The translations under genes were made by a program, and so were the position numbers. A model generated the notes under the pieces. It was not told the origin of the DNA and did not search any database. It saw nothing but the letters and a program-made list of their open reading frames with translations. 64,000 nt of DNA, taken from assembly GCA_964016885.1 (NCBI GenBank), contig OZ024747.1, positions 7,440,001-7,504,000 of the forward strand, written 5' to 3'. Below, piece by piece: positions 29,550 through 30,308 of the stretch (its first letter is position 1; the number at the start of each line of letters is the position of its first letter). The stretch comes from Eledone cirrhosa. Taxonomy: Eukaryota.

Positions 29550-30301
29550 AACATATTTGGATCTTAAAGTTTAAACTTATCTACGGAACAGGTTTGATTT
29601 TGAAATTTAAATGTGTCTAAACATCACGGCCTCTTGGCAATACAGTTCGTCTTCGTTGATTTATTATTTTAAATCGATATGGACAAACTGTAGTATAATA
29701 ATTAGTATACTTCAATCTGGCTAAATTTTTCTTTGCAATATATATACAGATGTGTTGGTATCTGTGTTTCATCACATACATATTAATTTATACACTGCTC
29801 AGGGGGTATTTTCCTCCTTCGAGCTGATTCCATTGTAAAAGAATTCATTACCTTATTAATTTTAGCTGCTCCTAGTTTGAGCTGCAAGCCGCCTCATATA
29901 TACGACTGTTATTTCTAGCAGTACGGTTATGAGACTAGTTAGATACTGTAAAACCATGTGCGTCACGCAGTCTTTTAAATTATTTAGAAATGAAGCATAT
30001 CAATTTGTCTCTGGATGTTTACTGAGGAGAGCAGGACATGATATTCCTACACTTATTTAACTCGAAACATATTTGGATCTTAAAGTTTAAACTTATCTAC
30101 GGAACGGGTTTGATTTTGAAATTTAAATGTGTCTAAACATCACGGCCTCTTGGCAATACAGTTCGTCTTCGTTGATTTATTATTTTAAATCGATATGGAC
30201 AAACTGTAGTATAATAATTAGTATACTTCAATCTGGCTAAATTTTTCTTTGCAATATATATACAGATGTGTTGGTATCTGTGTTTCACCACATACATATT
30301 A

Positions 30302-30308
<7 letters not shown>
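29550..30308 (+). mobile_element. Partial tandem (about 1.5 copies) of a 516-bp non-coding, hammerhead-containing unit in (TA)n
   Basis: 29551-29791 is repeated at 30067-30307 with about 2 differences. Confidence 0.85.
30014..30141 (+). ncRNA. Type I hammerhead with extended stems II/III; predicted GUC cleavage after 30133
   Basis: GATGTTTA-CTGAGGA-GAG...CTC-GAAA-CATATTT...AAATGTG-TC-TAAACATC; 8-bp stem I, 8-bp stem III with one G-U. Confidence 0.82.

Follow-up and report, generated by a model that had tools for sequence, protein, structure and literature searches.

A dispersed 516-nt hammerhead repeat of Eledone cirrhosa with Penelope-like insertion ends in (TA)n tracts

How did a 516-nt unit that carries a hammerhead ribozyme motif come to lie, as a partial tandem, between two (TA)n tracts of the Eledone cirrhosa genome? 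The window analyzed here is a stretch of 64,000 nt (contig OZ024747.1, positions 7,440,001 to 7,504,000), and the original prediction made from its sequence proposed either a non-LTR retrozyme or a tandem of pseudo-LTRs (pLTRs) of a Penelope-like element (PLE). Co-occurrence with PLEs and similarity to their pLTRs have led to the proposal that non-LTR retrozymes depend on PLEs. The locus raises two questions, namely which RNA served as the template and which enzyme copied it.

The window copy is 759 nt long and has a single arm. A direct repeat of 243 nt (29550-29792 and 30066-30308; spacing 516, 99% identity, 2 mismatches) matches the predicted repeat of ~240 bp with a period of 516. The copy begins with an upstream piece at 29550-29617 (+), which is 5' truncated, corresponds to monomer positions 449-516, and holds stem III and a first GUC without the CUGANGA half; the GTC ending at 29617 is the second cleavage site announced for this upstream copy. 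It is followed by the only complete cut-to-cut monomer (29618-30133, +; 516 nt, noncoding), the same unit being found in head-to-tail arrays elsewhere, and by a 3' partial unit (30134-30308, +) running from the predicted cut to an end site, hereafter A, at the junction with the right TA tract. As predicted, (TA)n flanks both sides: the left (TA)n-rich target tract covers 29152-29549 (TRF, 29152-29550) and the right one 30309-30757 (TRF, 30305-30757). Within the unit, no frame runs for 100 aa from stop to stop, in agreement with the absence of an ORF noted earlier.

The type I hammerhead at 30014-30141 (+) was delineated by sequence reading, folding, and covariation. Its stem I pairs GATGTTTA (30014-30021) with TAAACATC (30134-30141) through 8 Watson-Crick pairs, and is followed by the core CTGAGGA (RNA CUGAGGA; 30022-30028), a 3-bp stem II (GAG, 30029-30031, with CTC, 30061-30063) under a large loop, GAAA (30064-30067), a long stem III (30067-30078 with 30121-30132, spanning 30067 to 30132), and the GTC ending at 30133, after which the cut is predicted, all on the + strand. 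The 8-bp stem I, the core, the long stem III, and the GUC are thus as first described, while the word "canonical" fits the core only. An Rfam scan of the window at the gathering score gave 0 matches. Compared with shuffled sequences, the fold has z values of -2.3 (local) and -3.3 (monomer). Stems I and III form in the predicted local fold, and stem II has a probability of 0.0 in the thermodynamic model since the core mispairs there. For the window unit, the active fold is predicted to lie above the minimum by 3.4 kcal/mol locally and by 6.5 kcal/mol in the circular monomer. Likewise, in hammerheads of subfamilies A, A', B, and C, the catalytic core is predicted to be sequestered at the energy minimum, with the active fold 1.8 to 4.9 kcal/mol away. 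Efficient cleavage as a monomer, which had been predicted, is plausible. Having only one complete hammerhead, the window copy cannot free a monomer by two independent cuts. It could still release one through a modeled, permuted type III-like pairing of the upstream GUC with the single catalytic half whose predicted stability equals that of the type I fold (predicted energies in kcal/mol: permuted pairing, -139.9; type I fold, -137.0; minimum, -146.4).

Is this ribozyme maintained? Type I hammerheads occur in the repeat units of the family, with core and three stems in the window and as 128 distinct sequences in the fetched loci. Across 11 hammerheads taken from representative monomers, pairing is complete (100%) in stem I, where 5 of the 8 pairs vary in both partners, while 2 of the 3 stem II pairs covary, and paired cells reach 91.6% versus 14 to 47% in slid controls; most rows of subfamilies B and C have U-U at two positions of stem III. 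At the tertiary pair, 4 rows have C3-G8 and 7 have U3-A8, the latter being a described covariation of PLE hammerheads (PMC4209133). Using a search pattern that admitted all four combinations at positions 3 and 8, the 128 distinct hammerheads of the fetched loci comprised 95 CG, 32 UA, 1 UG, and 0 CA. From the stem I covariation and the C3-G8/U3-A8 switch, which represent few independent events (three main subfamilies plus some sub-branches), we infer that the ribozyme fold is under selection.

The unit is dispersed and multicopy, which disposes of a single-copy local duplication. In the 3.0-Gb genome, the exact 27-mer across the cut of the window subfamily occurs 713 times (control, 0) and a degenerate family pattern across the cut 1,863 times (control, 0). 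The 40 places scored out of 1,389 candidates include full-length copies 97 to 99% identical on many contigs, and head-to-tail arrays reach about 7 units. Three main subfamilies have periods of about 516, 547, and 559 nt and share 65 to 80% identity; the ~547- and ~559-nt subfamilies were first met beside other elements and then searched for. The 42 distinct cut-to-cut monomers recovered measure 493 to 560 nt, and a circular reading of 15 representative monomers gave ATG frames of at most 53 aa. The region of the unit is AT rich. Fixed terminal direct repeats are absent, since the repeats are partial tandems of variable length. The unit is longer than the 170- to 400-nt retrozyme circles shown in 2020 (PMC7229834), but it sits inside the 51- to 972-bp family range published by Li et al. 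in 2026 (10.64898/2026.07.22.740005), so that the qualification "large" was not retained. In the main texts of the mainly open literature that was searched, neither this family nor any mapping of retrozyme ends turned up.

Regarding the template, the first clue lies at the predicted cut itself. The 24 nt that follow the cut have 487 exact matches; C17 precedes 484 of them and another base precedes 3, these three being GTA/GTT point variants in which the upstream unit sequence continues. No copy ending at the cut and followed by TA was found, in a count that copies missing a few bases beside the cut would escape. With no ends at the cut among 487 copies, cleaved linear ends are not the integrated form, and the proposed copying of a circular or multimeric RNA stands, the template being continuous across the cut. 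Retrozyme RNAs occur as linear monomers besides circles (PMC7229834), and one could imagine that the enzyme jumped end to end between linear cleaved monomers, as the template switches suggested by occasional mixed-subfamily tandems (locus L230) would allow. Failed jumps should then leave 5' ends at the cut, where the 487 copies have none, and the junctions are letter perfect in 713 copies, which makes such jumping very improbable.

The second clue comes from the outer ends. We mapped them in the first 60 distinct insertions listed on one contig (C1), selected solely for spanning the cut, and counted the central cluster of each locus only. Two sites about 68 nt apart hold 87 of the 93 outer 3' ends: site A (monomer ~175; window 29792 and 30308) has 46, site B (monomer ~243; window ~29860) has 41, and 6 lie elsewhere with 0 at the cut. 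The stretch between the two sites (29793-29860, +, in the window) is referred to as the tail. TA-rich DNA adjoins 82 of the 93 ends, and the flanks beyond the TA tracts are unrelated between copies. Of 27 one-ended copies, 13 end at A, as does the window copy, 13 at B, and 1 at another position, with 5' ends scattered from monomer position 39 to 496. The upstream piece of the window does start inside GAAA, as originally read; a special meaning of this start was rejected given this scatter, and it resembles ordinary 5' truncation. The other 33 insertions are two armed (inverted), with 27 A+B, 1 A+A, 0 B+B, and 5 with another end; loci L154, L174, and L196, which look two armed by eye, were counted as the script classed them. 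On the 28 insertions with both ends at A or B, the pairing of A with B has a binomial p of 1e-7. The 547-nt subfamily (B), with end sites at 183 and 265, shows A+B in 18 of 20 two-armed insertions and no A+A or B+B, as counted by eye in a sample chosen through site A. The two arms of one insertion diverge by a median of 1.4% versus a background of 5.1%, and 31 of 32 fall below the background median, as do 28 of 30 comparisons of units within insertions (one pair per locus, longest overlap). Judging from these divergences, both arms of one insertion copy the same variant.

Telomerase-like reiterative copying of the flanking tracts was considered and rejected, the outward CA/TG bias being absent (64 versus 64 over 75 ends). 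In two loci (L081:2445-2740 and L166), tail-region pieces form separate inverted fragments next to TA tracts, and in L081 a Neptune-like element ends (3') immediately before the piece.

Several arrays bear on whether the unit spread at the DNA level, as a satellite or by duplication, with the hammerhead as a passenger. One array (L113) holds six near-identical units, 0 to 1% apart, and in another locus (L195) the whole insertion is duplicated 1970 bp away; some arrays thus probably grew at the DNA level after insertion. Such a process leaves unexplained the fixed 3' ends combined with scattered 5' ends, the inverted arms, the unrelated flanks beyond the TA tracts, and the selection on an RNA fold. 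It accounts for local array growth only and is disfavored, to the point of being scarcely credible, as the route of dispersal.

The ends recall those left by PLEs. Frangieh et al. in 2024 showed a PLE protein cutting and extending AT-rich DNA on both strands, with starts at two internal RNA sites, the stretch between which is the tail unique to PLEs (PMC11167929), and Craig et al. in 2021 described an inverted arm, a one-sided tail, and a (TA)n preference for PLEs (PMC8557442). Because the unit shows two start sites, an inverted arm, a one-sided tail, and (TA)n targets without having an ORF, its mobilization by a PLE enzyme is well supported.

Is the unit then simply the pLTR of an autonomous PLE that was not sampled, its copies being truncated insertions of that element? 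The PLE-type ends would suit this reading, and so would the U3-A8 core common to subfamily C and two local Neptune-like families. The genome holds 10,595 candidate RT/GIY-YIG elements, of which 150 were scored, with a Pfam domain check, and 50 GIY-YIG loci from these, roughly eight families by eye, were examined, a sample that leaves room for further families. Several of these elements carry the cysteine motif between RT and endonuclease that marks the Neptune and Nematis clades (PMC8557442), and by this motif they are likely of Neptune type. Their own pLTR insertions lie in TA targets, and four loci (L096, L100, L105, and L108) hold inverted pairs in which a single arm carries the tail. The 50 loci, compared with the unit by blastn and local alignment and searched with a profile built from 15 monomers, gave no pLTR homology above the shuffled null (best unrelated score, 40; maximum of the null, 37.5). 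The only matches were separate insertions of the 516-nt family beside PLEs: family pieces adjoin PLE ends in 5 loci (L063, L081, L088, L094, and L108) and one lies between two PLE copies (L107), which we read as shared use of TA tracts. Conversely, the original prediction had named constant attachment to a PLE ORF as the sign of a mere pLTR, and none of the 186 unit-bearing loci (duplicates included) is contiguous with such an ORF; a PLE match is present in 15, always 257 to 3333 bp away with a TA run between. Since PLE matches are always separated and no pLTR sequence is shared in the 50 loci, the unit is not a pLTR in any copy seen. Moreover, past site B all 42 distinct monomers continue into their own next copy and not into an ORF, and the loose ends among the matches listed in three DNA runs (one sample, stored as contigs, whose behavior is that of genomic DNA) are family variants or TA. 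An RT plus GIY-YIG ORF between pLTRs, which defines an autonomous PLE, is not present in the unit. The plain-pLTR reading, in our view very improbable, is largely refuted for the copies seen, and an ancestral or partner pLTR of the unit may still exist.

The unit sits in a cluster of minimal-hammerhead insertions. A different minimal-hammerhead family, with a CTGATGA core and a palindromic short stem III, occurs at 28701-28764 (-) and 28875-28938 (+), at 7583-7632, 8722-8766, 29032-29086, 30896-30944, and 56515-56602 (-), and at 15158-15208 (+). It thereby flanks the 516-nt unit with an inverted pair just to the left and a copy just to the right, and its copies are probably solo PLE pLTR pieces. 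At 28345-28545, two copies of another repeat, which has CTGATGA/GAAAC-like parts and recurs in L091, L096, L100, and L107, form an inverted pair, and at 36976-37020 (+) lies a minimal hammerhead-like motif with a CTGAAGA core. Outside the window, a second hammerhead-like tandem unrelated to the 516-nt family (L101:8067-9552, +) has a period of about 490 to 510 nt and at least 4 units, each of which encloses a TA tract whose length varies. A LINE-like frame of 572 aa at 13217-14935 (-), with a reverse transcriptase domain (PF00078, E 4e-33), is 15 kb from the 516-nt unit and unrelated to it. The window also holds two young minisatellites (19516-20947, 53 nt by 27, 99%; 45881-47524, 75 nt by 22, 98%).

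How does the unit compare with known systems? It resembles animal non-LTR retrozymes in its type I hammerhead, its noncoding unit in an AT-rich region, its dispersed monomers to multimers, and its apparent absence of LTR features, as well as in its coexistence with PLEs, circle formation and PLE mobilization having been proposed for them (PMC7229834; 10.64898/2026.07.22.740005). It differs from them by a stem III hairpin of about 60 nt and by its 3-bp stem II under a long loop. The unit also has fixed end sites, inverted arms, and (TA)n targeting, which are not described for retrozymes in the available text of these two sources; the words "inverted" and "microsatellite" have 0 occurrences in that of PMC7229834. 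With the EN+ PLEs Neptune, Poseidon, and Naiad it shares partial tandems, an inverted 5'-truncated arm, a tail on one end, two internal start sites, and AT-rich or (TA)n targets (PMC8557442, PMC11167929), together with a hammerhead upstream of the end sites and the U3-A8 core variant (PMC11167929, PMC4209133). In contrast to these elements, the unit has no RT/GIY-YIG ORF, the tail measures 68 to 82 nt in its family versus 30 to 40 nt in theirs, and it carries a full hammerhead with a stable stem III instead of their minimal, dimer-dependent form. Being TA-like, its start sites resemble the target, whereas those of the anole PLE do not (PMC11167929).

Chlamys elements such as MRC1 are likewise ORF-less PLE dependants with pLTRs and multicopy head-to-tail insertions, but they are described as being without canonical hammerheads and as usually having 3' sequence in common with a known partner (PMC8557442), whereas the hammerhead of the unit is conserved and no partner homology appears in the 50 GIY-YIG loci. 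Finally, plant LTR retrozymes are defined by type III hammerheads in two LTRs and a 4-bp TSD, features that the unit does not have, in contrast to its type I topology, variable partial tandems, and TA-tract junctions. Altogether, the family has the type I hammerhead, the tandem and dispersed copies, and the noncoding, unattached state of a non-LTR retrozyme together with the end features of a PLE dependant, and lacks the ORF of an autonomous PLE. The choice originally offered between a retrozyme and a PLE pLTR tandem was a false one: the element is an ORF-less retrozyme, and its ends are of PLE type.

Did the PLE enzyme copy a circle? Other animal retrozymes are known to form RNA circles (Cervera & de la Pena 2020, PMC7229834), and circles have been proposed for PLEs (PMC4209133). 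With the same element and the same PLE enzyme, an uncut transcript reading through a tandem source array could also have served as the template without any circle, the hammerhead acting late or with the help of a protein. Such a transcript gives the same seamless junctions as a circle, source arrays of 4 to 7 units exist, and the predicted fold is inactive by default. For the anole PLE, cleavage is unneeded for insertion in vitro, the uncut RNA is the dominant substrate, and the hammerhead is protein assisted (PMC11167929), and of 9 Xenopus retrozyme dimers assayed in vitro, a single one cleaved, the other 8 remaining uncut (Li, Clavereau & Pollet 2026, 10.64898/2026.07.22.740005). Unlike tandem neighbors within one insertion also bear on this question: some units in L205, L164, and L230 differ from their neighbors by 4 to 17%, which under a single circle requires template switching or later recombination, and the heterogeneous neighbors of L230 and L164 fit a mixed source array. 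The neighbors in L230 (C1:265802155-265803225) are 83% identical and those in L164 about 11% apart over 161 nt, which suggests template switching or a mixed source array. What the uncut transcript does not explain is a cutting competence kept across 25 to 35% divergence, including the C3-G8/U3-A8 tertiary pair and the long stem III, with 0 of 487 cleaved ends, nor the closer relation of units to each other than to other loci in most insertions (28 of 30). We regard this alternative as unlikely, though less so than the others. The religated circle is the likeliest template, as it explains together the continuity across the cut and the conserved catalysis.

Our best explanation, which we consider probable, is a family of ORF-less hammerhead repeats in (TA)n whose rejoined RNA circles are copied by a borrowed Penelope-like enzyme from two sites. 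The RNA of the unit would be cut by the predicted hammerhead into ~516-nt monomers, likely rejoined into circles. The copying would fall to a reverse transcriptase/GIY-YIG protein borrowed from a Penelope-like element, likely of Neptune type. It would nick both strands within a TA tract and copy the circle from A and B, with one DNA end as primer at A and its counterpart at B on one shared RNA. From there, each cDNA would extend back across the rejoined cut, going round more than once in arrays, and the two products would then be joined back to back, or one of them lost. The window copy would be a one-armed product that was primed at A and ran for 759 nt (1.47 turns).

We further propose, with doubt and confidence in equal measure, that the family is a genomic readout of the Penelope mechanism acting on a small RNA circle, with a single enzyme complex priming both ends of a (TA)n break at two fixed sites of one religated circle and synthesis rolling through the ribozyme junction. 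Catalytic selection on the hammerhead would then have persisted even though no cleaved ends reach the genome (0 of 487). If this is true, cutting and rejoining would be a required step of the cycle, and the pLTR, the tail, and the inverted arms would fall into one model. The family gives countable footprints (two start sites, pairing of A with B, a cut site free of ends, and catalysis under selection) that bear on retrozyme integration and on the circle versus the uncut multimer as template. For specialists, it may be a clean example more than a surprise, in a genome that offers together a 516-nt substrate and candidate young enzymes of Neptune type.
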